Translations under genes and position numbers: made by a program
In this document: positions 5,491 to 55,460 of the stretch, in pieces
Layout: every line of letters starts with the position of its first letter
Numbering within the stretch: position 1 is the stretch's first letter
The notes under the pieces: generated by a model
What the model was told of the DNA's origin: nothing
Database searches by the model: none
What the model saw: the letters and a program-made list of their open reading frames with translations, nothing else
DNA from: Deltaproteobacteria bacterium
Lineage (GTDB): Bacteria; Myxococcota_A; Polyangia; HGW-17
Reading direction: 5' to 3'
DNA: 64,000 bases
Assembly: GCA_027858615.1 (NCBI GenBank)
Contig: JAQICJ010000292.1
Location: 623 to 64,622, forward strand

Positions 5491-5492
5491 TG

Positions 5493-5652: not shown

Positions 5653-5714
5653 TATTTCGTGTGGTTCCGGTTCAACTAAAAACCCAGTCTGAAACCTTTA
5701 TTTCAAAAAGGTTT

Positions 5715-23940: not shown

Positions 23941-23945
23941 TATAG

Positions 23946-24106: not shown

Positions 24107-24150
24107 TAGTTAACTTGCCCCCTTTTTGCTCCATTCAATTTTGGGAAAAA

Positions 24151-25867: not shown

Positions 25868-26350
25868 TCAGTCTTCAAAAAAATAGGTAAAAAGCAGGGC
25901 GTCTTCCTGGTTATCAGAATAATATTGAGATCGGTATCCCGTTTGAACAAATCCGAACTTATTGTAAAGGGCTTTGCCGGCATGATTGCTTTTTCTGACT
26001 TCCAGATAAATTTTTTTAACGTTGACATCAGACCCCATTTGGATCAGGAATTTAAGCAAACTGCTTCCCAGTCCTTCTTTTCTGACAGCGGGATCGATGG
26101 CCAGATTGGTAATATGGATTTCATCGCAAACCAGCCAGAAAAAAATGTAACCCCTCAGTTTATTGTCGTTTTTTGAGACTATGCCGAAGGAAAAAGAATA
26201 GGAAAGATGGAATTCGGAAATAAAACTGATTTTTTTCCAGGGAGTTGAGAAGCATAAATTCTCAATTTCAAGAACGTCTTCAAGATAATCTGAATTTAAG
26301 GGAAAAATTTCAATTTGTTCCATTATATGTGATTTTGGATTGATTTCCAT
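25868..26350 (-). CDS. rimI: GNAT N-acetyltransferase, RimI-like.
   Basis: GNAT motif A region ...ITNLAIDPAVRKEGLGSSLLKFL... and ...KIYLEVRKSNHAGKALYNKFGF. It overlaps the engB stop, indicating an operon. Confidence 0.7.
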   Translation of the reverse strand: MEINPKSHIMEQIEIFPLNSDYLEDVLEIENLCFSTPWKKISFISEFHLSYSFSFGIVSKNDNKLRGYIFFWLVCDEIHITNLAIDPAVRKEGLGSSLLKFLIQMGSDVNVKKIYLEVRKSNHAGKALYNKFGFVQTGYRSQYYSDNQEDALLFTYFFED

Positions 26351-26928
26351 AATTCTTGAAGTCCGGTATTTTTGGTAGCTGAAAAAAGAATCGGAGGTGG
26401 CATCTGGGGAAGTTTCTTTTGATACTGAACAAGCAGGTTGCCCCTTTTGTTTTTAGGGATTTTATCTACTTTGGTATAGACAACCACTACATTATTGTTC
26501 ATTTGCTGCAGCCATAAAAGAAAATCAATTTCATAACCGCTGATACCTCTTCTGGAATCTATCAGAAGAACAACCAGTTTGAGATATTCTCTGCCGGATA
26601 AATATTCGGTGATAAGCTCGCCCCATTCATCTTGCAGTTTGCTGTTGACTTTGGCATAGCCATACCCTGGTAAATCCGCAAAAATAAAAGGAGCTAACTG
26701 TTTGGTAACAGTTTTGAAAAAATTAATTTCACGGGTTCGCCCAGGGGTCTGACTGATGCGAACTAATTTACGCCGGTTGAGCAGTAATTTGAGCACGGAA
26801 GATTTTCCCACATTTGATTTTCCGGCAATAGCTATTTCGGTCAGTGCCTCCTGGGGAAATTGTTTGCTTGAACGGGCACCGAGTAAAAATTCTGCCTCAG
26901 TGACTTGGGGAATTTTAGATAGGGTCAT
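26323..26928 (-). CDS. engB: Ribosome-biogenesis GTPase YihA/YsxC.
   Basis: G1 motif AGKSNVGKSS, then TPGRTR (G2) and DLPGYG (G3), and the NKxD-equivalent TKVDK. Its start overlaps the stop of the giant TPR gene (ATGA). Confidence 0.85.
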   Translation of the reverse strand: MTLSKIPQVTEAEFLLGARSSKQFPQEALTEIAIAGKSNVGKSSVLKLLLNRRKLVRISQTPGRTREINFFKTVTKQLAPFIFADLPGYGYAKVNSKLQDEWGELITEYLSGREYLKLVVLLIDSRRGISGYEIDFLLWLQQMNNNVVVVYTKVDKIPKNKRGNLLVQYQKKLPQMPPPILFSATKNTGLQELWKSIQNHI

Positions 26929-29900: not shown

Positions 29901-32900
29901 AAAATTGTATTTTTCAACAGCTTTTTCGATGTCGTTGATTTTATCTCTCAGGATATTTCCAGTTTCAAGAATCAGGTCGTTACGTTTGTCGTTGTCAGTT
30001 TCCAGTCCTGTTCTTTGTTCGAGAGTTTTGATTAACTCATACCAGTTCTCGTCTTGTTTATACAAGTCTGAGAGCATTTCCATGGCTTTGATATTGTCAG
30101 GGGAATCTTCAGTGATAATTTTGAGAGCTGAGATAGCTTCGAAGGAATCATTGAGTTTTTCCTGCTGAATTTCTGCCAGTTTGAAAGCTTTTTCAATTTT
30201 GTTTTCTCCATCAAGACGGATGATGTTTTTCAGAATTTCAGAAAGTTCATTATACTTTTCGGTTTCCCGGTAGAGGGATTCGAGAGCACTGAGAGCCTCA
30301 GTGTCTTCGGGGGAATACATCAGCAGTTTATCCCAGGTGGAAATGGCTTCTTCAGGTTCGGAAAGTACGTCCTGACGCAAGCGGGCAAGTTGTCTCAGAG
30401 TGGAAAGAATTTCCTCCTGATCTGTCAGTAGTTCTGACTTTCTAGCCAGGAGAGCAGAAAGTTTTTTCCATTGTTCGGATTCTTGCAACAGTTGAGCAAG
30501 TTCGGTGATTGCCTGCAGATGATCATCACGGATATCCAGCAATTTGTAATAGGTGATGATTGCCTGTTCCCTGTCATCAAGAGTTTCAGCCTGTATTCTG
30601 GCAATTTTCAAGAGAACATCAATTTGCAATTCGGTGTCATAGTTGTCTTTGATGCCTTCCTGAAGAACAGCTATCAATTCTTCCCAATTACCTTCCCTTA
30701 CTGAAATTTCATAGATTCTATTGAGGATTTCACGGTTGGAAGGTTCGAGCTTCCATGCTTCACTGAGGGATGTGAAGGCCCGAGCCAGATCATCCCCCCT
30801 TCCGTCGTAAAGATGGGCGCATTCTTTGAGTAATTCTATTTTGCGATATTCATCTTCGGAAAGTTCAATCTGGATTTCATATACAAAGACAAGTCGTTTC
30901 CAATAATCAAGTTCTTTGTAGATGGGTTCCAGAATTTTAGCCACCCTCAATTTGATGGAATCTTTATCCAGAAGTTTTTCCAGATAATCGATGGTGTTTT
31001 CATTGAGAGGATCGATATTGATGATTTCTTCAAGTCTGAAAACAGCGGAATCTGGATCATCAACTTTTTCATAATAAAGTTCGGCAAGCTTGAGATTGAG
31101 TTCTATGATTTCTGCAGGTACTGTTTTCATTGATACCTGCTGGATCAGGTGTTCGATCAAATCTTCCCAGTTGCCGAGTTTTGTATAGAGTTTGGTTAAA
31201 GCTTCAACCGCTTTTTGTTCTTCTGGTGATGATTCAAGAATTTCGCGATAAACTTCTACTGCCTCTTCGAGTTTATCGAGTTTATCTTCGAGAAGTTCAG
31301 AAATCTTGTACAGATTCTGGTTTTTCTTTTCAGGATCATAAAAGGAGTCGGCTGCATCGCGATATACTTTGAGCAGATTGTCCCAGCGTTCATTTTCAAG
31401 GAGGAGTAACTCAAGTTCTCTGAAGATATTTTCGTTGGAACTGTCACTTTCGAGAATACGTTTGTAATACTTCATGGACTCGTCGATTTTATTCATTTCC
31501 CGGGCATAAATACGGGCAAGGTGAGTCATGATGATAGTGATGTGTTCTCCCGCATAATAGGCATCTTCTACAATTTTAGAGAATACTTCGGTGAGTACTT
31601 CCCATTTATTCAGGAGTTCCGAGAGATTGAGAAGACGATCCCTGACCTTTTGATTGTCAGGTTGTTCCAGCAGCAGATGACCATACCAGGTGTAAGCTTC
31701 TTCAAGATCATCGAGGACAGTTTCATATAGTTCTGCTATGCGGCTGGTAAGTTGGGCTTTTTCTTCGGGAGTTTGTTTAATGTCTCTCTGAATAGAAAGA
31801 ACCTTGATCAGTTTTTTCCATTCCTGACGAGCTGCATAAACAGGCACGAGTACTTCTGAAGCTTCACCGGAGTAATCTTCTTTATCGAGGAAACTTTCCA
31901 GTCTGTTGATGATTTCTTCGGAAGTAGGACTTCCACCCAGAGCGGCACGGAAAGATTCAAGAGCTCTGTCCTGATTTTCGAGATAATCACAGAAAATTTC
32001 ACCCATATTGAATCTGATTTCCACAGCTTCTTGCAATTTGGTGGTGTAGCGAATTCTGTTTTCATACAGTTCTATCAAATTGTCCCATTTTTCCAGATCA
32101 AAGAGAATCTCTTCGAGAGAACGGAAAATCTTGTAGTCGTCCGGCTTGAATTCGAGGATAGTGTTATAGTATTCAATGGCTCGAATTGGTTCATTGAGTT
32201 TTTTCCTGCACAATTCGGCTGCTTTAACCAGAGCGTCATAACGGGCATCAAGATTGTCCAGAGCCATATTGGCCCTTTTTGTATAGATGCCAAGCAGTTG
32301 ATCCCATTGCTCTGTAAGTTCGTAAACCCTTTCCAGAGCATCCATGGAGTGAAAATTTTCAGGGGAAATTTCCAGAACTTTTTCATAATACTTCTGAGCA
32401 ATATCAAGTTTTTCGAGTTCATCTCTGGCAATGTCGGCTATGGTCAGAAATACCTGTTGTTGCAGATTTATGTCGATAATGTCATCGGCTACCTGAATGT
32501 AGAGGTCAACCAATTGTTGCCATTTATCTTCCAGAGCGGCAATGCGCTGAAGTTGAGCAAGAATATCAGGCAGTTCAGGTTCTCCAACAGCTTCCTTGAG
32601 GGCTTGTCCGTAAAAGCCGAAGGCCGAAACCGGTTTACCAAGTTCGGTTTCTTTGATTCCGGCTATTTTAAGGAAGAGGGATACTTTCTGGTGGGGATCA
32701 AAAGCATATCCGGCTTTGAGAACATAAAGGGCTGTAAGTTTTTCCCAATTGTTTTCAAGTTCATAGATAGTTTCAAGAATTTCCGCTGACTGAAGGGCAA
32801 GAGTTTCTTCACCTTGAAGCATGGATTCCAGAGCTGCTTTGGATTTTTCATGGGAGGGATCTTCATCAAGAACATTTCTGTAGTAAAAGATTGCTCTTTC

Positions 32901-35900
32901 AGGTTCTTCAAGATGTACCTGCAGAATATAACCCAGCCTGTAGTTGAGAGAGCGTCGGTCTTCGTCGTTTTCGGTGAGATTGAGTTCTCTTTCTACATAA
33001 TCGAAAACATCGGTCCAATTGCCCGATTGTTCATTGAGGCGGGCAAGATAACGGATAGCTTCGCCATGTTCCGGGTTTTCGTTGAGAATTGAAGTCCAAG
33101 CTTCAATGGCTCCTTCGAGATCATTAAGAGATTCTTCCCTGAGGATGGCAATTCTGGAGAAATAATTGAGTCGTTGTTCTTCATCCTGGGTAAGTTCGAC
33201 TTTTTTGGCCAGAATTTTTACAAGCTCATCCCATTTTTCGATGCGGGAATAAATAAATTCAAGTCGATCAAGAGCTTCGTCATCAGTGGGAAATTCTTCC
33301 AGTAATTTTTGATAGGTTTGAGCGGCTTCCAGAGGAGCATCAAGCATGTCTTCCTGGAGAACTGCGATATTACGGTAAATATCTTTTCGTTCTTCTTCTC
33401 CCTGAGTCCAGTTTAGTTGCTTTTTATAGATTTCAATAATTTCAATCCATTCTTCCATGGATTGATACAGGTTCACCAGAGCCTGGGCAGCTTCGTCCTG
33501 TTTTTGCAACATGCTTTCTTCACCGGCTTTTTCCAGAAGTTTTCTATACCATTCGATGGATTTTTTCGGTTCTTCCAGATGGGTCTCATGGATATCAGCT
33601 ATTTTTTCGAGGTATTCGATGATAAGCAGATTGTTGTCTTCAACTGCTTCAATGGCTTCCTGCCATACTTCTACTAATTTTTCGTAGGAATTGAGAGCAA
33701 TAGCGAGATTTTCGATGGAATCTCTGACATTGGCACTGGCGGGATCAAATTGGATAGCTCGTCGCCATACTTCAAATGCTTTTTCCGGTTCACTGAGTTT
33801 GAGGGTAAGAATTTGGCCGATTTTAGAGAGAATATCAACGGCTTCATAGTTGTCCTGGGTGTTTTCAAGTTTAATTTCCAAGAGATCAACCAATTTTTCA
33901 TGGTTATTTTCATCTTCCATGAGCCGGATGAGAATATCAGCTGCTTTTTGTCTTGTTTCCTTGATTTGAAGCATCTCTTCGAGCATCTGGCGAGTATTTT
34001 CGTGTCTCTGATCGAATTCAAGGATTTCACGGAGAATATCGATGGCCAGATTGGGAGATTCCATTTTGTGCAGGAGAATATCGGCTCGTTTATACATGAG
34101 ATCGATTCGTTCCTGGTCGGAATCAGCATAGATGAGTTCGTCTTCATAGAGGGCGGCCAGATTTTCCCATTTGTCCGATATTTCGTAAAGTCTGATGAGA
34201 GCTTCGAAGGCTTCATTAGATTCATTATCGAGTTCACGCAATTTGGTATATGAGTTGATGGCAGCTTCTACGTTGGCCAGCATATTTTCGTTGAGATGGC
34301 TCAACTTGGTGAGGATATCTTTTTGTTCTTCGGGTTCAACTACAACATCAAGGCGTTTAGTATACAGAGTTTTAAGATCTTTCCAGTCTTCAGAACCGGA
34401 GAAAATTCTTTCGAGAGCAAGAAAAGCGCCTTCATGAAGGGGATCTTCTTCCAGTACGGTAAGATAGAATTTTTGGGCTTCTTCCCGATTGTCTTCGTCA
34501 ATTTCTTCCATGCGGGCAATTTCCCAGGACAGGGAAAGTTTGAGTTTGTCTTCATGGTTTTCTATGTATTCGAGATAAGTTTCTTTGAGAGTGTTAATTC
34601 GTTCATCAAGTTTGGCGAGGGTGTGAAGTTTTTTGCGTACTTCTTCGTCCTCGGGTTTCAGTTTGAACAATTGAATAGCCAGATCAAAGCCCTTGCCCAT
34701 GTCACCTATTTTCTGAGTAGTGATATCGAGAAGTTCCTGGTAAAGTTCAATCTTTTTGGATTCATTTTCTTCTTGTCGGGCAATGACTTCAAGAGCGAAG
34801 GTATAATCTTCCCAGAGTTCTTCTTGCTTGTAATAAGGAAGAAGATGTCCGGCAGCTTCGATTCCGGTCTGGTTGTTTTTTTGATTTTCAAGAATTTCTC
34901 TGATAGCGGCTATAGTTTCTTCGTGCTGGGGAGAAAATTCCAGAACTCTGGCAAAATGGGGCAACGCATCTTCAGGTTGTTCAAGCATGTCTTTGAGAAG
35001 TTCGCCCAGACGGAATTCGAGGTTGATGATTCTTTCTTCTTCCTCAACTTCCTGGATTTCCATTTTAAGGATGCGAGCCAATTCTTCAAATTCATTTTCC
35101 CCGAGATAGAGGCGGTCAAGAGCCTGCAAGGATTTGAGATGAGCAGGATCTATGTCGATAATTTCGTTGTAATAACGAATTGCGCTTTCCTTGTCATCTT
35201 TTTGGATTTCCATGATGGAGGCCATTTTTTCGCGGGCCCAGATGGTTTTTTCGGGTTCGCTGTCTAATTCTATCTGTTTGTTTAAAATTGCTGTAAGTTC
35301 ATCCCACTCTTCTTTGATTTCGTAAATAGAAGCAAGTCCTTCGAGAGCTTTGTGGGATTCTTTATTGATGGCAAGAATTTCCTGGAGAACTGATTCGCCT
35401 TTTTCCAGTTCGGAGAGTTTTTCAATATAAATTTTGGAAAGACGTGAGAGCAGATCAATTTTGTCGTCGCCTTCCATGTCAGGTTTGACCTGATTGTATA
35501 TTTCTGCCAGATCAATCCATTTGTCAGCCTGCTCGGCGAAACTTTGCAATTGCTCAATAATTTGATTGTCAAAAGGGGAAATGAGATAGGCTTTTCCACA
35601 CCACTTGAAAGCTTGAGTGGGATCGCTGAGTTTTTTGTCGTAGCTTTCAATAAGTTTGTGGAGCCATTGCAATTTCTCTTCTTTGCTGTCGGCGTTTTTG
35701 AGCAGAACTTCGTACATATCGGCAGCTTTGTTCCAGCGATTCAACTCTTCATAGAGGGGCAGGAGGTTATCAGCTGCGGTTTTGTTGGTTTCATCGGTTT
35801 TCAGAACTTTTTCGTAAGGCTTGATGGCTCTTTCCGGTTTGCCGATTTTGGTGCGGTAGATATCAGCTACTTTAAAGAGCAGGAAGATTTTAGCTTCAGG

Positions 35901-38084
35901 ATCTTCTTCTCTAGAAGCGTATTGACTTAGAGTTTCGATATATCCCAGCCAATTGTCGTTTTGAGAGAATAAATTTTCCAGTTGTTCCCAATTTTTATTT
36001 TCTGCATAAAGAGTTTTTAAAATTTTGAGAGACTTTGGATGGTTGGGATTGAGTTCGTGAACTCTTTCCCATATTTCCATGGCTTTGGCGCCATAGGATT
36101 TCATTTTGTCAGTGAGGATATTTCCGGTTTTTTCGAGAAGGGGCAGAGCCTCTTCATCGGTGGACATGGAAATTTTGCGATTGAGCATTTCTACCAGAGC
36201 GGGATATCTTTTGTCCCTTCTGTAGAGGAAAATCAGATTTTCCATGGCGTCTATATCGTAGGGATCAACTTCCAGAATGCGATTCCAGGTTTCAATAGCC
36301 AATTTTATGTTGTTAAGGGGGTTTTGAGCAAATTCGGCCAGTTCGACAAGTTTTTCGTGTTTTTCTGATTCGGGGATCAGTTCAAGTTCTTTTTGGCGCA
36401 GGAAAAACAGACCCTTCCAGTTTCTTCTTTGTTCGTAGATGTCTTTGAGACTGTTGATTACTTCGATGTCGCCGGGATCAAATTCAAGAATTTCTTCAAG
36501 GGGCTGAGCAGCCCGATTGGGATTAGAAAGATTTTCGCTCCAAAAATGGGCGATTTGTTTGAGGTATTCTTTTTTGGTGTCGAGCTCTTTGGTATTATCA
36601 GCTTTTTTCTGATAAATGGTGATGACTTCTTTCCATCTTCCCATTTTTTTGTATTTTTCAGAAAGTTCTTCAATGGCCTGTTCATTTTCGGGATCTAGTT
36701 TCAGAACGCTGTTGTAAACATTGACAACCATGGCATCGACTTGCATTTTATCTTCGATAATCTGAGCCATTTTGATGAGGGTGTTTACTCTGGTTTCGAT
36801 GTTATCTTTGGGCAGTGAACGCTCTTCTTTTTTGTAAAGTTCAACCAGGGCATTCCATTTTTCTGTCTTGTGGTAGAGTTTTTTCAACTCTTCTTTGGCT
36901 TCTTCGTGGGCAGGATCCTGCTTGAGAATTCGTTTCCAGACGTCAATTGCCTTGCCGGGGTTAACTTCGATGCTGAATTCAGCTATTTTGCGGGCGAATT
37001 TGACAGTTTCGTTGATGTCGCCTCTGGCTTTGCGCATTGCCTGCTGCAGCATGGAAATATAGCGCATGGGCTCATCTTTTTCGAGGTAATAGGCTTCGTA
37101 AAAATTGAGGAGCAGGGGGGAATCAGGCTCGGTTTTGCGTAATTTGCGGAAATATTGTTCGGCTTTGTCAAGATCTTCCAGTTGTCTCCACCAGATCATT
37201 CCCAATTGGAGATAAATCCCGGGATCGGGGCGACGAGAAGTCTGGATTTCATTTTCATAAAACTCAATCAGATCTTCGGTTTTATCTTGTTGGTTATAGG
37301 CTGAGACAAGCAGAGTTTTAGACTTGGCGTTATCAGGATCTTCTTCTCTTACTTTTTTGATTAGAGTTTCAGCTTCCTGGGGATTTTGAAGGTATTCCAG
37401 CAAGTATTCTGCTGTTTCGAGGGTCAGCAACTGGCGGTTGTCAGGATCTTCAAAAAGATCGAGTTTGGGCTTGATCAGGTTGACAAATTCTTCGTATCTT
37501 TGATTTTCCCTGTAGATGCGACAAAGATGCTTGAGGGCGTCACCGTTGGTTTCATCCTGTTTAAGGGATTGCATGAGCAGAAGTTCTGTCTGTTCTTTGT
37601 CTTCTGCATATTTGGCCGATACTTCCGCAGCTTTGTAGAACATATGAGAAGCCAGCTCTTTTTCTTCAGCGTCTTCGGCTTCAGTGGTGAATTTGGAAAG
37701 CAGCTTTTCGTAATTGCCGGCTTCCAATTCAAGTTCTTCTACTTTTTCGGATAATTTTTCGTCTTCCGGCTGCAATTTGGCAAGTTGGCGGTAAGCTTCG
37801 AGGGAATTGTTCCCTTGCCATAACTCTGATTCCAGCAATTCAGCTTTTCTTTTGATATTTTCAATATTTTCAGGATCTATTTCCAGAATAATATCCAAAA
37901 AAGCCAGGGCAATTCTCAGTCGATTTGACTTGATTGCTTTGCGGAATGATTTTTCCAGAAAAACTACCTTTTCATTGTCAGAAATATCTTCTTGGGCAAG
38001 TTTTTCTTTGATTGTTTCAATCTGGTTGTTGATTTGGGAAGAACTCAGGAGGTTGGTGATTAAGGTTTTGATATCTTTAAGCAT
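26925..38084 (-). CDS. Giant (3719 aa) acidic protein made almost entirely of tandem TPR-like repeats. No signal peptide.
   Basis: A single uninterrupted 11,160-nt frame. Repeats of ~34-42 aa carry a recurring W-(D/E/N)-x-L-(I/V/A)-x-(L/I)-Y helix-turn motif (EKWDELVKIL, ENWEKLTALY, EQWDQLLGIY, EKWDNLIELY, ERWDNLLKVY, GNWEDLIEHL ...). Strongly Glu/Asp-rich. All antisense ORFs inside it look spurious. Confidence 0.85.
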   Translation of the reverse strand: MLKDIKTLITNLLSSSQINNQIETIKEKLAQEDISDNEKVVFLEKSFRKAIKSNRLRIALAFLDIILEIDPENIENIKRKAELLESELWQGNNSLEAYRQLAKLQPEDEKLSEKVEELELEAGNYEKLLSKFTTEAEDAEEKELASHMFYKAAEVSAKYAEDKEQTELLLMQSLKQDETNGDALKHLCRIYRENQRYEEFVNLIKPKLDLFEDPDNRQLLTLETAEYLLEYLQNPQEAETLIKKVREEDPDNAKSKTLLVSAYNQQDKTEDLIEFYENEIQTSRRPDPGIYLQLGMIWWRQLEDLDKAEQYFRKLRKTEPDSPLLLNFYEAYYLEKDEPMRYISMLQQAMRKARGDINETVKFARKIAEFSIEVNPGKAIDVWKRILKQDPAHEEAKEELKKLYHKTEKWNALVELYKKEERSLPKDNIETRVNTLIKMAQIIEDKMQVDAMVVNVYNSVLKLDPENEQAIEELSEKYKKMGRWKEVITIYQKKADNTKELDTKKEYLKQIAHFWSENLSNPNRAAQPLEEILEFDPGDIEVINSLKDIYEQRRNWKGLFFLRQKELELIPESEKHEKLVELAEFAQNPLNNIKLAIETWNRILEVDPYDIDAMENLIFLYRRDKRYPALVEMLNRKISMSTDEEALPLLEKTGNILTDKMKSYGAKAMEIWERVHELNPNHPKSLKILKTLYAENKNWEQLENLFSQNDNWLGYIETLSQYASREEDPEAKIFLLFKVADIYRTKIGKPERAIKPYEKVLKTDETNKTAADNLLPLYEELNRWNKAADMYEVLLKNADSKEEKLQWLHKLIESYDKKLSDPTQAFKWCGKAYLISPFDNQIIEQLQSFAEQADKWIDLAEIYNQVKPDMEGDDKIDLLSRLSKIYIEKLSELEKGESVLQEILAINKESHKALEGLASIYEIKEEWDELTAILNKQIELDSEPEKTIWAREKMASIMEIQKDDKESAIRYYNEIIDIDPAHLKSLQALDRLYLGENEFEELARILKMEIQEVEEEERIINLEFRLGELLKDMLEQPEDALPHFARVLEFSPQHEETIAAIREILENQKNNQTGIEAAGHLLPYYKQEELWEDYTFALEVIARQEENESKKIELYQELLDITTQKIGDMGKGFDLAIQLFKLKPEDEEVRKKLHTLAKLDERINTLKETYLEYIENHEDKLKLSLSWEIARMEEIDEDNREEAQKFYLTVLEEDPLHEGAFLALERIFSGSEDWKDLKTLYTKRLDVVVEPEEQKDILTKLSHLNENMLANVEAAINSYTKLRELDNESNEAFEALIRLYEISDKWENLAALYEDELIYADSDQERIDLMYKRADILLHKMESPNLAIDILREILEFDQRHENTRQMLEEMLQIKETRQKAADILIRLMEDENNHEKLVDLLEIKLENTQDNYEAVDILSKIGQILTLKLSEPEKAFEVWRRAIQFDPASANVRDSIENLAIALNSYEKLVEVWQEAIEAVEDNNLLIIEYLEKIADIHETHLEEPKKSIEWYRKLLEKAGEESMLQKQDEAAQALVNLYQSMEEWIEIIEIYKKQLNWTQGEEERKDIYRNIAVLQEDMLDAPLEAAQTYQKLLEEFPTDDEALDRLEFIYSRIEKWDELVKILAKKVELTQDEEQRLNYFSRIAILREESLNDLEGAIEAWTSILNENPEHGEAIRYLARLNEQSGNWTDVFDYVERELNLTENDEDRRSLNYRLGYILQVHLEEPERAIFYYRNVLDEDPSHEKSKAALESMLQGEETLALQSAEILETIYELENNWEKLTALYVLKAGYAFDPHQKVSLFLKIAGIKETELGKPVSAFGFYGQALKEAVGEPELPDILAQLQRIAALEDKWQQLVDLYIQVADDIIDINLQQQVFLTIADIARDELEKLDIAQKYYEKVLEISPENFHSMDALERVYELTEQWDQLLGIYTKRANMALDNLDARYDALVKAAELCRKKLNEPIRAIEYYNTILEFKPDDYKIFRSLEEILFDLEKWDNLIELYENRIRYTTKLQEAVEIRFNMGEIFCDYLENQDRALESFRAALGGSPTSEEIINRLESFLDKEDYSGEASEVLVPVYAARQEWKKLIKVLSIQRDIKQTPEEKAQLTSRIAELYETVLDDLEEAYTWYGHLLLEQPDNQKVRDRLLNLSELLNKWEVLTEVFSKIVEDAYYAGEHITIIMTHLARIYAREMNKIDESMKYYKRILESDSSNENIFRELELLLLENERWDNLLKVYRDAADSFYDPEKKNQNLYKISELLEDKLDKLEEAVEVYREILESSPEEQKAVEALTKLYTKLGNWEDLIEHLIQQVSMKTVPAEIIELNLKLAELYYEKVDDPDSAVFRLEEIINIDPLNENTIDYLEKLLDKDSIKLRVAKILEPIYKELDYWKRLVFVYEIQIELSEDEYRKIELLKECAHLYDGRGDDLARAFTSLSEAWKLEPSNREILNRIYEISVREGNWEELIAVLQEGIKDNYDTELQIDVLLKIARIQAETLDDREQAIITYYKLLDIRDDHLQAITELAQLLQESEQWKKLSALLARKSELLTDQEEILSTLRQLARLRQDVLSEPEEAISTWDKLLMYSPEDTEALSALESLYRETEKYNELSEILKNIIRLDGENKIEKAFKLAEIQQEKLNDSFEAISALKIITEDSPDNIKAMEMLSDLYKQDENWYELIKTLEQRTGLETDNDKRNDLILETGNILRDKINDIEKAVEKYNFILDFNPDHEQAVAALEKLLDRVEYRNIVAKILEPLYQTKGQNKSLIKLYKLLLEDQADPEKRKVNLRSIAELYLTIQEPMESFKYWGILFKENPENKDAETQLHTIASEKQAWDKLVELYSEIVEEIYDEEIRKKILLTQANIYELSLEDLEGAVRVMQKAVEFMPDNLEILNQLDRLLNQTSKFDELENILQMEANTAFEPDQKSTYFYRLGQLRLEHFENHEGALAAWREALAFSENHELTITALEKLLEKDTPVLSEILDLLQPIYENLGYQEKMVALLKKRIEITKDPIIKSEYIVQAANISQQLGNIEVAFELWGKAVKTTPEEKQYVDEFIKIAEISNKETELIKIVSDILDNKLDEMTAIDLAMLTAQIALNSGDNESVEKLYRFVLNIEPENNKALKHLEEFYRITDEVNKLIEILDKRSEVIFDFEKKETILKEIANLSEQRLEQPQKAIDAWQKLFEQNESKKEVQDQLIRLYEKTENWGKLIDILKVKANYMANDPGLLEVKHKTARLLAEKMDKPNEAEEIWQDTFLMYPSDEVSYEALCSIYKSKEDWDALKDIYFTKLSQTQEETAKVLILENMASLVLNKQEDLFEAGDYYKQIIDIDASNEKAFNKLDEIFIKTERYHDLIQILEKRKDLSNSLGNSEEEVYYLDRIARIWEENLGSADNALEILGEILERDSGNVTALTGMARLYENMEDLEKCQQYLEKAALLEPKGREGAELAFRRGNIALKLGEKETAITRWEDALDLYPEHSEAFSALKKHYEETENKEGLLRLYEIKLPKVEDPEERLPLLLSISELFVQLSASEAAFPYLEEAAKIEPDNIEVKQKLGDTYYASGNHEKSMEIYTDLIDKLKTNRKAKKSLSVIYQRIGKIKKSQEDYAGALEMFNQSRRLNPTNIDNMLSIAGLHENNEELEKAQKIYRAMLFQKLDGIITKSEIYFKIAKIDHSLGNTKKAISSAKRGLSEDPNNQKIKDFLEDIS

Positions 38085-38391
38085 ATCCTCTCTCTTGTAA
38101 ACGCTCTGGAAAAATTTAATTTCTTTGAGTTAATATTACCATTTTACTACTTGCAGAACCTGATCAAAAAAAATCATAAAAAGTTAAATACCTAATAAAT
38201 ACAATTATTAAGCTTTGTTTTATGAATTATGAGGTGTTTATTTTGTTTGGGAAATTTGGAATTTTTTTTACCATCAACTGATGTTAACGGTTTCATTACT
38301 TTGTTGCAATGACAAAGATCATTTTAATGAATTTTTTTGGAAATTAAGTTCAAAATGGGGTTTTTTGACTGGGGAGGAAATAAAATTTGGA

Positions 38392-39147
38392 TTATTTGGA
38401 GGGTTGTTCACATTCGAGGTTGGTGTCATTACTGCGGAAAGCAAGTATTTCAATCAAACCGTTTACAGCACTGAGGACTTCGAATTTGGCGTAAGTATTG
38501 TCCGGCAGGTGCAGTAAATATACATTTTCAGACATGGTGAATCCGGTTTCACCAACTCCGCCGTCTCTCCAAGTATCGCCGATTACATAAGTTTCTGTGC
38601 CGTCTGTAGTGAATTCCATTTCTGAGGGGACTGAATCAACGTCGTAGAAATCAATTTCATTGCCGTAGTTGTGGGCGGCAACATCAGGACAAAGACCAAT
38701 AAGGGGTCCGTCACCTGACGTCATGACACTGATGGTGCAGGGATCGGCATCTGATCCTGTTTCCCAGTTTGTAAAATTTACTTTTTGTACGCCTCCGCCA
38801 TGAAGGTTGACGCTGACAATTACAGCTTCTAAAGGGGCTGTTACTTCGCAACTGCTGGTGTCATAATCCTGACAATCAGCAATGCAAGCCAGATTACCGC
38901 CGGCAAAATCAAAATCAAAACAGGTTAATTCACCCAGATTTGTTCCATCACAGATTTCGGAACCTTCGATTAGTCCATTGCCGCACCCAGAATTGTTTGT
39001 ATTATTTGTATTGTTGACGTTGTTGACGTTGTTGGCATTGTTGTCGTCGGAATCGTCGTCGCAGGCTGCGAGGCCGGCAAATAAAATGAAGGTTATCAAG
39101 AATAATTTAGTTTTCACTGATAGAGTCCTTTCTGTTTTTACAAACAA
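38392..39147 (-). CDS. Cys-rich lipoprotein with an Asn-rich low-complexity linker and a Myxococcus-type cysteine-rich repeat.
   Basis: Lipobox LFAGLAAC + DDDSDDNNANNVNNVNNTNNTNNSG, then CGNGLIEGSEICDGTNLGELTC, which resembles the CGDGxxDxGEECDDGN repeat. Confidence 0.6.
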   Translation of the reverse strand: MFVKTERTLSVKTKLFLITFILFAGLAACDDDSDDNNANNVNNVNNTNNTNNSGCGNGLIEGSEICDGTNLGELTCFDFDFAGGNLACIADCQDYDTSSCEVTAPLEAVIVSVNLHGGGVQKVNFTNWETGSDADPCTISVMTSGDGPLIGLCPDVAAHNYGNEIDFYDVDSVPSEMEFTTDGTETYVIGDTWRDGGVGETGFTMSENVYLLHLPDNTYAKFEVLSAVNGLIEILAFRSNDTNLECEQPSK

Positions 39148-39760
39148 ACATGAAGATTGATGCCATGTAAAATTTTTCTTTGAGCAATTTTAAATTTTCA
39201 AGTTCAAAAGGGGTTGCCAGGATTAATTTGAGCATTTTAAGCAAAGAAGGATATTCAGCTTGTGAAGTTGTCAATTTGACAAAACTCATGGCGATTTTAT
39301 CCCATAAATTATTTTGTGATGCTTGTACCATAATCAGATATCCATCAGGGGTCAACATTTTGGAAAAATTTTTGAGTATTTCTTCCTTGCGGTAATAATA
39401 AGGGAAAGAATGGGTGCAGATAATAACATTATATTTATTTGGTATCAGAACCATTTGGGCAACATCCAGACATTCATAAAATCCTTCAGGATCAAGATTT
39501 TTTGCCATCTCGATCATCTTTGGGGAAATATCAATTCCCTGGCAGTAAACTTTGTCAGTTGGCAAATTGTCCTTGATCATTCTGATAGTTTGACCGGTAG
39601 CACAGCCGGCATCCAGAATTTCAAGTTTACCATCCGAGTTTTCTGCAATTTTTCTGATTTCTTCTAATATCAACTTTCTAGTGGGTTTGAGAGAGTATTT
39701 TTGAACCCAGAGTTTTTCATATTTATGAGCCCAAAAATCCCAGATTTTTGTTGAATTCAT
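39107..39760 (-). CDS. Class I SAM-dependent methyltransferase (type 11/12).
   Basis: Motif I LEILDAGCATGQTIRMI and motif post-I/II DVAQMVLIPNKYNVIICTHSFPY. Confidence 0.8.
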   Translation of the reverse strand: MNSTKIWDFWAHKYEKLWVQKYSLKPTRKLILEEIRKIAENSDGKLEILDAGCATGQTIRMIKDNLPTDKVYCQGIDISPKMIEMAKNLDPEGFYECLDVAQMVLIPNKYNVIICTHSFPYYYRKEEILKNFSKMLTPDGYLIMVQASQNNLWDKIAMSFVKLTTSQAEYPSLLKMLKLILATPFELENLKLLKEKFYMASIFMFVCKNRKDSISEN

Positions 39761-39769
39761 CTAATTTCC

Positions 39770-41071
39770 TTATTGTGTCCGGCCAGATAAGTATTCAGGC
39801 AGATAAGTGTTGATGTTTTTGACAAAAGCCCTGAAATACAATTTATAAAAGTTAAAATAAAAAGAAAATCTGTTCATATTTTCCGGAGGCAGCACCAGGT
39901 GGAGAAAATCCCATTTCCTGATCTTGTTGGTCGTCAATTTTTCCCGGTACTTCTCATAAATTTCGGTTCCCGGCAAGGGCAGAAAGATGGAAAGGGTATA
40001 GGTGTTTATTTTCATCTTTTTGATCCACCTGCCCATTTTCTTGAAATCGCGGCAGGTAGCATCTGGTTTGATCATGAACAGAGCGGTCAGATTTATCCCG
40101 TTTTCCCGCAAGTATTTGACACAAAGGTTGTTCTGGTTGGCTTTCACCCCTTTTTCGTATTGATCGAGGGTTTTATCTTCAGTGGCTTCCAGCCCGACGA
40201 TTATGTCGATTACTCCCGCCTGACGCAGAGCAGGAAGCAGATCACTGTTTTCAGCTATGAAATCAGCTCGACTGTAAACGATAAATTTTTTCCGAATTTT
40301 GTTTTGATGAAGTTGTTCAATAAATTTTTCCACTCTTTTGCGCTTGAGCAGAAAGGTATCGTCGATGATCCAGATTAAATCATGTTCGATGGTTTTCAGT
40401 TCATGGATTACATCTGTTATTTTTCGGGGGAGATATTGTTGATCATTCAGCATTCGGCAATAACAGAAATTGCATTTGAAGGGACAACCCCAGGCTGTTT
40501 TCAGCAGAGCAACGGGTCCATAATTCAAATATCTGAATTTTTGTATGTTTTTCCGAAAATAGCTTCTGTTGGGCAGGGGCAGTTTTTCCGGGTTTAATTT
40601 TAACTTTTTGTTGGTTTTCCAGGTTTTTCCCTGCCTGTACCTGATGCCTTCTGTCAAAGGCCAGGATTTTGTAGAAAAATTGTGGGCAAGCAGCTTGGAA
40701 AAAGGTTGGATTCCCCCGGAACAACTTAGAATATCAAAATAGGGAGTTTGGAGATTCCGGTAATTTAATTCCACATGAACTCCCCCGGCCATGACCAGAA
40801 TTTTCGGGTTGAACAATTTTACCCTTCTGGCAATTTTTTTTATTTCATCTTCAGCGGTAAGATATCCGGTTATCGCAACCAGATCCGGTTTGAATTTCAA
40901 TAATTTTTTGATGAGAACAAAAGCCGAGGCGGGTTGATCGCAGATGGAATACCTGTGTCCCTGTCTGGAAATGATTGTTGCGAGGTATTCAAGAGCCAGG
41001 GGTTCGGTGATAACTGGATTGAACAGGGAGAAAATAGATTTGTAGGCAGGGCGCACCAGAAGAATTTTCAT
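39770..41071 (-). CDS. B12-binding-domain radical SAM enzyme.
   Basis: N-terminal Rossmann-like B12-binding region (MKILLVRPAY...VAITGYLT...) and the radical-SAM CxxxCxxC cluster AWGCPFKCNFCYC. 9-bp gap to the downstream methyltransferase. Confidence 0.85.
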   Translation of the reverse strand: MKILLVRPAYKSIFSLFNPVITEPLALEYLATIISRQGHRYSICDQPASAFVLIKKLLKFKPDLVAITGYLTAEDEIKKIARRVKLFNPKILVMAGGVHVELNYRNLQTPYFDILSCSGGIQPFSKLLAHNFSTKSWPLTEGIRYRQGKTWKTNKKLKLNPEKLPLPNRSYFRKNIQKFRYLNYGPVALLKTAWGCPFKCNFCYCRMLNDQQYLPRKITDVIHELKTIEHDLIWIIDDTFLLKRKRVEKFIEQLHQNKIRKKFIVYSRADFIAENSDLLPALRQAGVIDIIVGLEATEDKTLDQYEKGVKANQNNLCVKYLRENGINLTALFMIKPDATCRDFKKMGRWIKKMKINTYTLSIFLPLPGTEIYEKYREKLTTNKIRKWDFLHLVLPPENMNRFSFYFNFYKLYFRAFVKNINTYLPEYLSGRTQ

Positions 41072-41085
41072 TAAACTATCGGGTT

Positions 41086-42327
41086 CTATTTGTCATCAAG
41101 TTTTTTTTGCAGCAATTTGCCCAAAGATCCCATGCCGCCTTTGTTTTTGTTTTTATTTTTTTCTTTGAATTGAGTGTATAGTTTATTTTCTTCATTTTCA
41201 GGAGCCTGGTTGGAGTCACCGGGCATTGCCAGAGAAATACGGCGTTTCACCGGATCAACACTTTCAATTTTTACTTCTATTTCCTGTCCTTCTTTCAAAA
41301 CCTGAGCTGGAAATTTAACTTTTTTGCCGCCGTTTGTGATTTTTGAAATGTGCAAAAGTCCGTCAATGCCATCTGTTAGAGTAATAAAAGCTCCGTATGA
41401 TTCCAGTCGGGCAACTTTGGCTTTGTGAACTGAATCGACTGGGAAAAGCTGGGTAAGAGATTCCCAGGGATTATCGAGGGTGTTTTTGAGGCTGAAGGAA
41501 TGACGGTTGTTTTCCCAGTCAAGGGACATGATTTCCACATCGACAATTTGTCCCACCTGCAGGTAGTTACTGACGTCTTCAACCCGATTGTAGGAAATAT
41601 GGGAAATGGGGATCAATCCTTCAACTCCGCCTACATCTACAAAAGCTCCAAATTTTTGCAGAGAGGTGATTTTGCCTTCGATTGTCTGTCCCACCTGCAA
41701 TTTTTCTTTGAGTATTTCCTTCTTTTCTTCTTCTTCCTCTTCCAGGAGATTTCTTCTGGAAACAACGATATTTCTGCCTTTTTCAGAGAATTCAATTATG
41801 TGGAAGGTAAGATGGGTGCCAATGAATTTGGAATTGTCGTCGGAACGCCTCAGGGTCATCTGAGAAAAGGGACAGAATCCGCGTTTATTACCCGGGAGTT
41901 TGATTTCGTAGCCTCCCTTTATTTCTTGTTCAACATAGGCTTCAATGGGAATTTCATTGTGGTAGGCATTTTCCAGTTGTTCAATTCCTGCATCCCGGCC
42001 ACCGCCAATTTTCTTGGTAAAATGATATTCCCCATTCTTGGTATAAACAAAGAAACAATCAATGTAGTCTCCGGTTTTAACTTCAAGATTTCCATCCTTG
42101 TCTTCCAGTTCTTCCCGGGAGATAACCCCTTCTCCTTTTCTGCCGATGTCGAGAAAAGCCCATTCATCTGAAATAGTAACTAGTTTGGCTGAGATTTTCT
42201 CTCCAGGTTCGTATCGTTCAAAGTTTGCAGGCTGGTTGTTCAACATTTTTGAAAAATCTGAATTTTCTGGAGTTTTAGAATTGGTTGGATCCATTATGTT
42301 TCCTTTGATAAGTTCCTTGACGTTCAA
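41086..42327 (-). CDS. Multi-S1-domain RNA-binding protein (ribosomal protein S1-like, ~4 S1 domains).
   Basis: Repeated S1 OB-fold signatures (GQTIEGKITSLQKFGAFVDVGGVEGLIPISHIS; AKVARLESYGAFITLTDGIDGLLHISKI). 14-bp gap to the rSAM gene. Confidence 0.75.
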   Translation of the reverse strand: MNVKELIKGNIMDPTNSKTPENSDFSKMLNNQPANFERYEPGEKISAKLVTISDEWAFLDIGRKGEGVISREELEDKDGNLEVKTGDYIDCFFVYTKNGEYHFTKKIGGGRDAGIEQLENAYHNEIPIEAYVEQEIKGGYEIKLPGNKRGFCPFSQMTLRRSDDNSKFIGTHLTFHIIEFSEKGRNIVVSRRNLLEEEEEEKKEILKEKLQVGQTIEGKITSLQKFGAFVDVGGVEGLIPISHISYNRVEDVSNYLQVGQIVDVEIMSLDWENNRHSFSLKNTLDNPWESLTQLFPVDSVHKAKVARLESYGAFITLTDGIDGLLHISKITNGGKKVKFPAQVLKEGQEIEVKIESVDPVKRRISLAMPGDSNQAPENEENKLYTQFKEKNKNKNKGGMGSLGKLLQKKLDDK

Positions 42328-42367
42328 TTTGCCTGCAGAATTGTTTTGCTGTCAGTTAGTTTTCATC

Positions 42368-42500
42368 TCAGAATGGTTTTTTTTGACTGGATAAAAAGTT
42401 TGCCTCTGATGCGTACAGTAACTTCCCAGACATAGTTGCCACTATTTCAAGAAGTTGCGATAAAGCAGATGAGGTTAAATTCCATATTCAGGCGAATACC
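42368..42500 (-). mobile_element. Degenerate MITE-like repeat copy 4, in the same orientation as copy 3 and lacking the terminal inverted repeats.
   Basis: The internal core ...TTCGCCGACATAGTTG(A/C)CACTATTTCAAGAAGTT...AAAGCAGATGAGGT(A/T)AAATTCC... is shared with copy 3. Confidence 0.55.
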
Positions 42501-42891
42501 TTCCTTTTTGAGATGTAAACTAGTTAATTCTTGGAAAAGAAGCAAATTGAAACTGAATTTTTTGTTCGGTTTAAATCCGGATAGGGTTAGTGCTCTGATT
42601 AGGAGTCAGGCAAAAATAAACTGGAAAATTCCCCGTAAATCTGCCGAAAGAAAAATCAGTAGCTGATTAATAAAACAATAAAAGTACTTGATTTTATAAT
42701 TGCTGCTCCTGCCTTTAGCGAACAGACAGCAACTAATCATTAGCAGAAAAAAATCATTTGTGTCAAGGGTCTGGATTTTTTTAAATTTATTGATTATATG
42801 AATAATCAGTTTCTCGGACAAATATTGTTTTATTTGCCTGAGAAATTCTGATCTGTATATTTTATTTATACTTTAATCTCGGGTTTACAGA

Positions 42892-44118
42892 ATGAAACTT
42901 TTAGCTCCAGCAGGAAATTTTTCTTCGCTTGCCGCCGCCTTGAAAGCAGGTGCCGACAGTGTTTATTTTGGTACCAAATTATTGAATATGCGAGCCAGAG
43001 CTCGTAACTTCGAATTAAATCAACTAAAAAAAGTGGTGGAGCGTTGTCATGACTATGGTGCTGAATCCTGGTTGACTCTGAATATTCAAATCTATGACAA
43101 CGAAATAGAAACTGCAGAAAAAGTTTTAAACAGTGCGGCCCAGGCTGAAGTTGACGGAGTGATTGTCTGGGATCCGGCAGTAATTTCTTTGGCTGCCAAG
43201 ATGAATATCCCTTTCCATATCAGCACCCAGGCAAGTGTAGCCAATGTGGAAAGCGCCCTTTTTTATGAAAATCTTGGAGCCAAAGCTGTGGTTTTTGCCA
43301 GAGACTTAAGTCTTGAATCCATATCTCGGATTAAACAGAAGTTGAAAGCTCGGGGATCAAATTTAAAGATGGAATGTTTCGGCCATGGAGCCATGTGTGT
43401 TGCCGTGAGCGGTCGCTGTTTTCTCTCTCAGTTCATGTTCGGACAAAGTGGAAACAGGGGAGAATGTCTCCAGCCCTGTCGCAGAAGTTACGAGGTCAAG
43501 GACACAATTTCCGGCCAAAAATTGAGACTGGAAAACCACACCATCTTCAGTCCTCGTGATCTATGCACCATTCCCGTGTTAAATCAGATTATGGCCGCCG
43601 GGGTCGATCTGTTAAAAATTGAAGGCAGAAACCGCAGTGCCGATTATGTTTTTGAAGTAGTTAAAACTTATCGTCAAGCTTTAGATGCAGCTTCCCAGGG
43701 AAAACTGGACCAGAAAAAACAAAATCGCTTGGTTGATAATTTGAGAAAAATTTACAACAAAGGATTTCACACGGGATTTTATGAAAAACCTCCCGGGCCC
43801 ATGGGTTATTCCAGAGAAGAGAATTCCTCGGGATTGAGAAAAAAGTTTTATCTGGGGCGAATTGATAAGATCTATCGCAAGATTGCTGTTAATGATATCA
43901 TCGTTCATTCGGGACAGTTGAAAACAGGACAGAAAGTTCTGATTTTGGGCAAAACTACCGGAGTGGAAGCAACCACAGTAACTTCAATATATAATGATAA
44001 TCATCAAAGTGTAGAATTTGCAGAAAAAGGACAACTGGTAGGTGTAAAATTCGCCGGCAATCCTCATTTGCACTGTCAGGACAAAGTTTTTGTTTTTGAA
44101 AAACCAGGTAAATCATGA
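42892..44118 (+). CDS. Peptidase U32-family protein (collagenase-like / RNA-hydroxylation-associated YegQ/RlhA/TrhP family).
   Basis: MKLLAPAGN...AGADSVYFG, and E-x-F-x-H-G-A-L-C context in ECFGHGAMCVAVSGRCFLS, then ...LKIEGRNRSADYV. Confidence 0.8.
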   Translation: MKLLAPAGNFSSLAAALKAGADSVYFGTKLLNMRARARNFELNQLKKVVERCHDYGAESWLTLNIQIYDNEIETAEKVLNSAAQAEVDGVIVWDPAVISLAAKMNIPFHISTQASVANVESALFYENLGAKAVVFARDLSLESISRIKQKLKARGSNLKMECFGHGAMCVAVSGRCFLSQFMFGQSGNRGECLQPCRRSYEVKDTISGQKLRLENHTIFSPRDLCTIPVLNQIMAAGVDLLKIEGRNRSADYVFEVVKTYRQALDAASQGKLDQKKQNRLVDNLRKIYNKGFHTGFYEKPPGPMGYSREENSSGLRKKFYLGRIDKIYRKIAVNDIIVHSGQLKTGQKVLILGKTTGVEATTVTSIYNDNHQSVEFAEKGQLVGVKFAGNPHLHCQDKVFVFEKPGKS

Positions 44119-44891
44119 ATAAAGAAACAATCATCAACCAGCTATTTGCATCAACCAGATTTTCTATTATTGCAGGACCCTGTGCGGTTGAATCAGAACA
44201 ACAGTTAGATCTGCTGGCTCGCAAACTTTCTTTTCTGGGGGTTGAAATTTTCAGGGGAGGAGCCTTTAAAAGTCGGACTTCTCCCGACAGTTTTCAAGGT
44301 TTGGGAGTTAAAGGTCTGCAATTACTTCAAAAAATAGCCTCCAAATACAAGATGATTGCAATTTCCGAAATCATGAGTGAAAACCAGTTGGAAGCAGCAG
44401 CCAAATATGTTGATATTATGCAGGTTGGAGCTCGAAATATGCAAAATATCCCTTTGCTTAAAGCAATTGGCAAACAAAAAAAGCCCGTATTATTGAAAAG
44501 GGGGTTTGGCAGCACCATAAATGAAGTAGTGGAGGCTACCAAATATATTTCCGATCAGGGTAACCAAAAAATAATTCTCTGTGAAAGGGGCATCAGAACT
44601 TTTGAACCTGCAACCAGATTTACTCTGGACCTGTCTTCTGTTCCCATTTTCAAGGAAAAAACACCATATCCGGTATTTGTTGATCCATCCCATGCTTCCG
44701 GCAGGGCAAAGCTCGTTCCCTTTTTGAGCAGAGCCGCTCTGGCCATTGGAGCCGACGGTCTCATGATTGAAGTTCATGAAACCCCCCAAAAAGCACGTTC
44801 CGATGGTTTGCAGTCATTGACTCCGATTCAGTTCAGTAAATTGCTCGATTTTCTCAAGCCCATGGCCGGGCTGCTGGGAAAAAAAATCTAA
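44115..44891 (+). CDS. aroF: 3-deoxy-7-phosphoheptulonate (DAHP) synthase, short type I-beta (no regulatory domain).
   Basis: IAGPCAVESEQQ...FRGGAFKSRTSPDSFQGLG...QVGARNMQN...LLKRGFGSTI...ILCERGIRTFE...VFVDPSHASGR. The DPSHA(S/T)G and KPRTS motifs point to DAHPS rather than KDO8PS. Overlaps the U32 stop. Confidence 0.75.
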   Translation: MNKETIINQLFASTRFSIIAGPCAVESEQQLDLLARKLSFLGVEIFRGGAFKSRTSPDSFQGLGVKGLQLLQKIASKYKMIAISEIMSENQLEAAAKYVDIMQVGARNMQNIPLLKAIGKQKKPVLLKRGFGSTINEVVEATKYISDQGNQKIILCERGIRTFEPATRFTLDLSSVPIFKEKTPYPVFVDPSHASGRAKLVPFLSRAALAIGADGLMIEVHETPQKARSDGLQSLTPIQFSKLLDFLKPMAGLLGKKI

Positions 44892-55195: not shown

Positions 55196-55340
55196 ATTAT
55201 TTTTATTGATAAAAACTCATTGGGGTTATTGGCATCTCCCCGGAGTAGTATTACCCTTCCTTCCTAATTGCCGGCAGCTTGTTTCCTTCCTGATTACCGG
55301 CAGCTTGTTTCCTTTCTGATGGCCAGCGCCTTGTTTCCTT

Positions 55341-55451: not shown

Positions 55452-55460
55452 TCTAGCGAA

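Follow-up and report, generated by a model that had tools for sequence, protein, structure and literature searches.

A conserved pair of genes, encoding a B12-domain radical S-adenosylmethionine (SAM) enzyme (here rSAM) and a class I SAM-dependent methyltransferase (MT), lies on the minus strand of a 64,000-nt stretch of DNA from a Deltaproteobacteria bacterium of the Myxococcota_A lineage (assembly GCA_027858615.1, contig JAQICJ010000292.1). We refer to this whole stretch as the window. The pair is preceded by a gene for an S1-type protein and followed by a lipoprotein gene. As judged from sequence comparison, the two enzymes form a module that belongs to a widespread family without a name, and the window pair is a reduced form of a larger unnamed cluster of GNAT, FemAB-like, multiple rSAM and MT genes. 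The conserved unit has three genes, S1-rSAM-MT, not four. With regard to function, our preferred reading is that the rSAM and the MT act one after the other on a single substrate of acyl or lipid type, which each of them modifies, and are co-expressed with S1. We give this a probability of roughly 45%, and it is to be taken as tentative, as the reactions of the two enzymes, the kind of substrate they use and the significance of the S1 linkage are inferred. The features concerned are as follows.

41086..42294, minus strand: S1 gene, 402 aa from ATG 42294; the longest open reading frame (ORF) starts at TTG 42327
39770..41071, minus strand: B12-domain radical SAM (rSAM) gene, 433 aa, based on Pfam, AlphaFold and orthology to the rSAM1 position of the larger cluster
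39107..39760, minus strand: class I SAM methyltransferase (MT) gene, 217 aa, based on Pfam and orthologues
38392..39117, minus strand: lipoprotein gene, 241 aa from GTG 39117, with lipobox, Asn-rich linker, Cys-rich repeat and predicted all-beta C-terminal domain
42295..42891, minus strand: divergent intergenic region and S1 leader, with one promoter-like site (42821-42793)

The four minus-strand ORFs on which the initial annotation was based (41086-42327, 39770-41071, 39107-39760 and 38392-39147) are all present. They represent real genes and not chance frames, since three of them match protein families above threshold, and orthologues of the fourth cover its full length.

The radical SAM enzyme and its methyltransferase partner

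The rSAM protein matches the B12-binding (48.1 bits, cut-off 32.1) and Radical_SAM (44.3 bits, cut-off 29.5) families of Pfam. Its CPFKCNFCYC motif occupies residues 196-205, and the cysteines of the C196-x3-C200-x2-C203 pattern are invariant in 22 homologues. The AlphaFold model (pLDDT 91.3) has AprD4, TsrM, CysS, OxsB, MgmA and TokK as its nearest solved folds (E ~1e-19, 15-19% identity). The best structural match is AprD4 (TM-score 0.76), and the best PDB match by sequence is TokK (E = 1.6e-9). By motif, domains and predicted fold, we assign the protein to the class-B radical SAM enzymes, i.e., those with a B12-binding domain, and it probably binds cobalamin. The initial annotation had proposed a B12-domain radical SAM enzyme next to a class I SAM methyltransferase, and both are upheld by Pfam and by the rSAM fold model. 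B12-domain radical SAM enzymes act at unactivated carbons, and we know of no function for most of their subfamilies.

The best-scoring named families for the rSAM are HpnR and BchE, which have the same layout (an N-terminal B12-binding Rossmann domain, then the radical SAM core) and align with it over nearly its full length; JGI automatic annotation calls some members of the rSAM family “hopanoid C-3 methylase”. We rejected both as identities, with scores of 143.9 bits against an equivalog cut-off of 650 for HpnR (TIGR04367) and 129.7 bits against 481 for BchE (TIGR02026). The rSAM family differs from both, in addition, in its gene clusters and in being widespread in Clostridia. HpnJ, PhpK, ArsL, the ladderane-type TIGR04072, ApyD, the methyl-coenzyme M reductase (MCR) Gln methylase, KedN5 and TsrM-type models were rejected in the same way (16-82 bits, with cut-offs of 360-750). 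With the two best NCBIfam scores this far below their cut-offs, the earlier statement that no named pathway matches these genes holds.

Other characterised enzymes resemble the rSAM in fold or in logic. CysS and TokK/ThnK are iterative C-methylases of pantetheine- or carrier-bound substrates; CysS and TokK are among the nearest folds (TM-score 0.65-0.72), and their structures were crystallised with pantetheinylated substrates. Some clusters of rSAM relatives encode acyl carrier protein (ACP)-like and acyl-CoA-ligase-like proteins, akin to the carrier-bound substrates of CysS and TokK. In contrast to these enzymes, the window rSAM is approximately 200 residues shorter (433 vs. 624-664 aa; 16-19% identity) and has no extra C-terminal domain, and the window has no carrier protein gene. 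ArsL and ArsM of arsinothricin biosynthesis follow the same logic, in that a radical SAM step and a conventional SAM methylation are carried out on one substrate, although ArsL is not a B12-domain enzyme. The ArsL model scores 63 bits for the rSAM, and ArsM_2 scores 17 bits with the window MT and rises to 44 bits with one MT orthologue; these values are far under the cut-offs of 450 and 240, and no arsenic genes were seen nearby.

These comparisons also bear on an alternative in which the rSAM is not a methylase at all, and would instead perform a cyclisation, dehydration, rearrangement or C-C coupling, with the MT supplying the only methyl group. AprD4, BchE, HpnJ and OxsB are all B12-domain radical SAM enzymes with non-methylating chemistry; AprD4 is the best structural match, and BchE and HpnJ are among the top family matches. 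Set against these, the top-scoring named family (HpnR) is a C-methylase, the closest PDB sequence match (TokK) is a methylase, and so are most characterised enzymes of this fold class. The presence of a separate conventional MT, in some cases fused to the rSAM, would suit a non-methylating first step, as would the occurrence of up to four rSAM paralogues per cluster, which suggests several different steps. Sequence alone does not choose between a methylase and other chemistry. On balance, we regard this alternative as unlikely, and C-methylation as the most probable rSAM reaction.

The MT matches four Pfam families (Methyltransf_12, _31, _11 and _25) at 45-49 bits, each above its cut-off, and its motif I reads LDAGCATGQ. 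These features place it among the class I SAM-dependent methyltransferases, with a predicted Rossmann-type SAM-binding domain. It reaches no named equivalog in NCBIfam (BioC, 54 bits vs. a cut-off of 185), and its best PDB matches are plantazolicin-type N-methyltransferases (E ~1e-4). MT orthologues accompany the rSAM at 56 of 84 related loci, on its strand in every case, and 54 rSAM1-type genes have the MT immediately downstream. Natural rSAM-MT fusions are represented by two proteins (P0038 and P0047) and one further locus (L118); in P0038, the rSAM aligns with residues 9-427 (44% identity) and the MT with residues 448-642 (39% identity). That the pairing is functional and not accidental, as had been proposed, is supported by its retention across many phyla and by the existence of natural fusions of the two enzymes.

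The rSAM family has 692 database matches at E <= 1e-10, and a pattern scan of contigs from one genome per species gave at least 599 stretches, at least 555 of which encode rSAM relatives. Clustering of ORFs across the 84 loci defined a recurrent cluster that consists of a GNAT gene (~360 aa), an Acetyltransf_6/FemAB-like gene (~330 aa), rSAM1, MT (~210 aa), rSAM2, rSAM3 and rSAM4, such that a cluster carries two or three B12-rSAM paralogues beyond rSAM1. A seven-gene example occurs in Geosporobacter ferrireducens (L012, 7884-15990). The cluster occurs in hundreds of species, spread over Clostridia (Hungatella, Ruminococcus flavefaciens, Acetivibrio), Desulfobulbales including Electrothrix, and Gastranaerophilales (Melainabacteria). 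None of its members has an NCBIfam name, and a profile search of the GNAT and FemAB-like partners against PDB sequences gave generic GNAT matches or none. No description of the rSAM-MT cluster or of an S1-rSAM operon was found in a full-text literature search, and the cluster is not listed in a 2026 review of lipid-modifying radical SAM enzymes. A paper on Mss and branched glycerol dialkyl glycerol tetraethers (brGDGT) was considered as a description of the cluster and set aside, as it deals with a different, Tes-like enzyme.

The window rSAM is 41-48% identical to the rSAM1 genes, and 33-36%, 26-28% and 21-23% identical to the other paralogues; by this measure it is the orthologue of the rSAM1 position. 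A tblastn search for GNAT, FemAB-like and further rSAM genes found none in the whole 64-kb window. Reduced forms also occur elsewhere, as Fem-rSAM-MT-YaiI (L087) and rSAM-MT-YaiI (L085). In these two loci, whose rSAMs are 72% identical, a YaiI/YqxD (DUF188) gene lies directly after the rSAM-MT pair (3155-3610 in L085; 10002-10466 in L087).

The neighbours of rSAM genes in relatives consistently belong to the acyl or lipid type. In Lachnospiraceae clusters (L018, 2007-3868; also L058, L077 and L082), a fatty-acyl-CoA-ligase-like gene and a gene for an ACP-like protein of ~77 aa (with the motif GLSSFD) lie directly before the GNAT gene, which points to a carrier-bound acyl substrate. Singleton rSAMs of gut Clostridia (L023, L037 and L081) have DegV and a 228-aa protein as neighbours, and in L055, L056 and L062 a long-chain acyl-CoA-ligase-like gene and an rSAM are accompanied by a member of the same 228-aa family, which is conserved and has no Pfam match. 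Further neighbours of family members include FeeM, MMPL, ornithine decarboxylase, patatin and LpxB. We also considered the large cluster as a pathway for a ribosomally synthesised and post-translationally modified peptide (RiPP), and rejected this because, apart from the ACP-like gene, none of the short ORFs nearby proved to be conserved. The surroundings of the clusters yielded no conserved ORF for a precursor peptide, and the other candidate short-ORF “families” proved to be overlapping frames of real genes.

The S1 gene and the lipoprotein gene

The S1 protein scores 399 bits against NCBIfam NF005208 (“30S ribosomal protein S1”), which passes the equivalog cut-off of 368, and its residues 28-357 are collinear with residues 18-346, or domains 1-4, of E. 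coli bS1. We therefore classify it, on alignment grounds, as a short, four-domain form of ribosomal protein bS1 (NF005208, PRK06676 type). Relatives of ~400 aa with ~50% identity are common in Geobacter, Desulfuromonas, Nitrospirota and metagenome-assembled genomes (MAGs) of Myxococcota. The initial annotation had included an S1-type RNA-binding protein in an unusual mix of functions; a role as an exotic RNA-binding partner does not fit a short bS1, most of whose family has no rSAM neighbour (e.g., the short-S1 genes of L090 and L172). There is precedent for the joining of S1 to a non-RNA Fe-S enzyme in the IspH-S1 fusion family (NF000907), although in the window S1 is a separate gene followed by the rSAM-MT pair.

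The ends given earlier for the S1 and lipoprotein genes were the TTG starts of the longest ORFs. For S1, the start is most likely ATG 42294 rather than TTG 42327, as a ribosome-binding site (RBS; AAAGGA) lies just upstream of it and the resulting 402-aa product is 100% identical to NCBI protein P0121; JGI annotation retains the TTG start (413 aa). For the lipoprotein, GTG 39117 is the most likely start. It also has an upstream AAAGGA, and agrees with the 241-aa JGI and NCBI calls and with the N-termini of orthologues (P0291). With this start, the 41-bp overlap reported between the MT and lipoprotein genes most likely becomes 11 bp. The gaps of 14 bp (S1/rSAM) and 9 bp (rSAM/MT) are as described before. 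A scan for minus-strand terminators found none at the three gene junctions and none after the lipoprotein gene; the single terminator-like match (41252-41240) lies within the S1 coding sequence. The narrow gaps and the absence of a terminator at the junctions fit the co-transcription that had been proposed, and we infer that S1, rSAM and MT are transcribed together from the S1 promoter region. The promoter-like site there (TTGTCC-17-TATAAT, 10/12 matches) lies ~500 nt upstream of the S1 start, and the number of such sites is no more than in shuffled sequences.

A cobalamin or SAM riboswitch, or another known regulatory RNA, was considered for the ~600-bp S1 leader and rejected, in that the window has no Rfam match at gathering thresholds, and for 37900-43000 even a limit of E = 1 gave no match. 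The leader does contain the degenerate copy of a repeat resembling a miniature inverted-repeat transposable element (MITE) noted in the initial annotation (42357-42527, 71-80% identical to the other copies).

5321-5494, 5498-5657, 23942-24114, 42357-42527 and 55460-55619: MITE-like intergenic repeat of ~170 nt, five copies in the window

The terminal inverted repeats of this element are AGTTCCCATCCCAGAA and TTTTGGGATGGGAACT. In the S1-leader copy, a change in one arm (CATCCCA to CATCTCA) is matched by a change in the other (TGGGATG to TGAGATG), so that the ends stay complementary. As a structured leader RNA the repeat was rejected, since it folds no better than shuffled sequence (z = -1.6).

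The order of the window genes recurs in a small number of relatives. In L088, S1 is followed after a 31-bp gap by the rSAM and the MT, and in L171 a 16-bp gap separates S1 from an rSAM orthologue that is cut off by the end of the contig after 69 residues. In the Myxococcota MAG GCA_018821745.1, S1 is cut at one contig end (L089) and rSAM-MT lies at the start of another contig (L005). The S1 relatives at these loci are 52-53% identical to the window S1, and the mutual identities of rSAM-linked S1 proteins are 52-55%, which is approximately the distance to Desulfuromonas. The upstream genes are different, namely FtsE-FtsX-M23 in the relatives and U32-DAHP synthase-UvrA in the window (DAHP, 3-deoxy-D-arabino-heptulosonate 7-phosphate). 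In a neighbour-joining tree, the S1-linked rSAMs group together with P0002 (77 of 100 bootstraps), with a full GNAT-type cluster as sister, so that S1-rSAM-MT arose once by cluster reduction and was then kept. A metagenome scan brought no further S1-linked loci, and most of what it retrieved were distant relatives of the Clostridia type. Of the proposed linkage, then, the S1-rSAM-MT part is kept in one deep Myxococcota-type clade, and the part that concerns the lipoprotein is not; a lack of linkage in relatives, which would have refuted the proposal, thus does not apply to the three genes within this clade.

The persistence of this gene order across deep divergence and changed flanks is a point in favour of a reading in which the S1 linkage reflects the substrate, with the rSAM and MT modifying the translation apparatus, either a nucleotide of rRNA or tRNA or a ribosomal protein such as bS1 itself. 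A second association is found in mouse-gut Clostridia, where the gene after a singleton rSAM encodes a 301-aa protein that has three S1 domains (L027, 9866-12339; L034, 8550-10887; L039, 9998-12269). These loci represent one Clostridia lineage (rSAMs 80-90% identical) and have the opposite gene order to the window, and the association is of second, independent origin. By a rough estimate that is not a formal test, two independent S1 adjacencies compare with ~0.2 immediate neighbours on the same strand expected by chance in ~160 loci, which is suggestive but does not decide the matter. Taken as a whole, the flanks of rSAM loci nevertheless show no enrichment of S1-domain genes, and the short-S1 genes, as noted above, mostly occur without an rSAM. 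Over most of its range, the family is accompanied by genes of the GNAT, FemAB-like, acyl-CoA ligase, ACP and DegV types, and RNA-related genes are absent from these clusters. On the side of this reading, B12-domain radical SAM enzymes that methylate protein residues are known, and one of them, MgmA, is among the nearest folds; in addition, YsxC and RimI are encoded on the strand of the operon, and a U32 gene of TrhP/RlhA-like type lies next to it in divergent orientation. The rSAM itself has no similarity to RlmN/Cfr and only marginal NCBIfam scores with the MiaB/RimO models, and isoelectric point and hydrophobicity proved uninformative as a means of telling RNA enzymes from lipid enzymes, the rSAM family having no characteristic isoelectric point. 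We consider modification of the translation apparatus improbable, and rank it after the non-methylating alternative, although with regard to the substrate it is the chief competitor of the acyl- or lipid-type reading. A narrower version, in which the S1-linked pair was recruited from a small-molecule or lipid pathway to modify an rRNA or tRNA carbon, bS1 or another ribosomal protein, seems to us more doubtful still.

The lipoprotein has a predicted signal peptide (MKTKLFLITFILFAGLAA, then the C of the lipobox LAAC, as read from the sequence), and the same layout is found in P0291 and P0303. Residues 44-92 match a Cys-rich repeat of ~48 aa that is present in 3692 proteins, with up to 29 copies per protein; no Pfam or NCBIfam repeat model, by which the lipoprotein might have been placed with the Myxococcus-type Cys-rich repeat proteins, matched it even at E up to 10. 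The C-terminal domain of ~150 aa has full-length orthologues in P0291 (46% identity) and P0303, which occur in unrelated contexts; a word-indexed search with this domain found only itself, and the orthologues were retrieved by an exhaustive search. The lipoprotein as such matches no family. Weak resemblances to HmuY, which agree with one another, were obtained with Pfam (PF14064, 15.9 bits, E = 0.014, gathering cut-off 27) and with Foldseek, where the top match is 6eu8, the Tannerella HmuY analogue (E = 6e-3, TM-score 0.32-0.38). The HmuY haem-binding lipoproteins of Bacteroidota likewise have an all-beta C-terminal domain, but the window lipoprotein differs from them by its additional Cys-rich repeat and Asn-rich linker.

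The initial annotation treated the four genes as one unit. A four-gene pathway would give the lipoprotein a role in carrying, binding or receiving the product, or in capturing a corrinoid for the B12 enzyme. The 11-bp overlap of the lipoprotein start with the MT stop, with an RBS of its own and no terminator-like site between the two genes, would be compatible with such a role, and HmuY is a tetrapyrrole-binding lipoprotein. The HmuY matches are, in turn, weakened by the low confidence of the lipoprotein model (pLDDT 53.6). No lipoprotein homologue is present at 170 related rSAM loci, and the place after the MT is taken by a HEAT-repeat gene in L088 and by an unrelated membrane protein gene in L005. 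The orthologue P0291 is located between peptide deformylase and PhoH in two assemblies. Finally, the GC content of the lipoprotein gene (0.46 at 38500-38999) is higher than that of the MT region (0.34-0.38; 0.34 at 39000-39499), which is consistent with a different origin or with a composition rich in Gly, Asp and Cys. We therefore view the lipoprotein gene, on comparative grounds, as a lineage-specific passenger outside the conserved module, and a four-gene pathway as very unlikely, the last of the alternatives in our ranking.

Substrate and chemistry of the two enzymes

In the reading that we prefer, the substrate is a hydrophobic molecule of acyl or lipid type, and the rSAM would functionalise one of its unactivated carbons by means of the [4Fe-4S]/SAM site, probably together with cobalamin. 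The MT would then add a second methyl group to the same molecule by ordinary SN2 chemistry, at a heteroatom or an activated carbon. In the window lineage, the cluster would have shrunk to rSAM1 and MT and been placed directly after S1, and the S1 linkage would represent co-expression with a housekeeping translation gene, and not evidence for an RNA substrate. A hydrophobic acyl substrate is favoured because relatives have acyl- and lipid-type neighbours, no precursor peptide was found, and CysS and TokK are near in fold. That the top family match, HpnR, is a hopanoid methylase is in agreement with this.

Several observations weigh against this reading. The clue to the substrate comes from the neighbours of distant relatives (33-48% identity), and no such neighbours are present in the window. 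C-methylation is not assured, since AprD4 (a diol dehydratase) and BchE (a cyclase) are not methylases. The rSAM start lacks a Shine-Dalgarno sequence. The S1-linked sample is small (3-4 genomes, one origin), and neutral retention of the gene order is possible, since L088 and L089 share upstream synteny at the same divergence. The Clostridia association favours the ribosome or RNA as the target, as does the translation theme around the operon, with S1, YsxC and RimI on one strand and the TrhP-like U32 gene divergent. With these points taken into account, an acyl- or lipid-type substrate remains first in our ranking.

Surroundings of the operon and significance

On the plus strand, across the S1 leader, the U32-family gene (408 aa) overlaps the DAHP synthase gene by 4 bp (42892-44891 for the pair). 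The best models for the U32 protein are TrhP (206 bits vs. a cut-off of 534) and UbiU (174 vs. 440), and the DAHP synthase passes its cut-off (361 vs. 335). The pairing of a prephenate-dependent-type hydroxylase (a TrhP-like U32 protein) with the first shikimate enzyme is suggestive. On the minus strand, in the region 25868-38084, a gene for a 3719-aa tetratricopeptide-repeat (TPR) protein starts 307 bp beyond the lipoprotein gene. It is followed, with a 4-bp overlap, by a gene for the YihA/YsxC ribosome-biogenesis GTPase (195 vs. 124 bits), and then by RimI (118.5 vs. 86.4). Elsewhere in the window, a Sel1-repeat gene (55897-56959) is built of 108-nt tandem units, and just upstream of it (55257-55345) there is a 26-nt tandem repeat with three overlapping 37-nt copies.

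The rSAM subfamily described here has no curated name, and is present in the genomes of more than 500 species, including gut Clostridia, cable bacteria and Melainabacteria. The two-gene form of the window is its simplest version and hence the easiest to express and assay, and an understanding of it would provide a foothold on the four-paralogue clusters. Should the attachment to S1 reflect the substrate, the pair would represent a new class of ribosome modification; and if it was recruited to the ribosome, no cobalamin-type radical SAM enzyme with the bacterial ribosome as its target would have been known before the rSAM, and S1 would mark the substrate. If the function is more ordinary, for example the synthesis of a methyl-branched lipid, the rSAM and MT would be a candidate gene pair for the methylated lipids of anaerobes.

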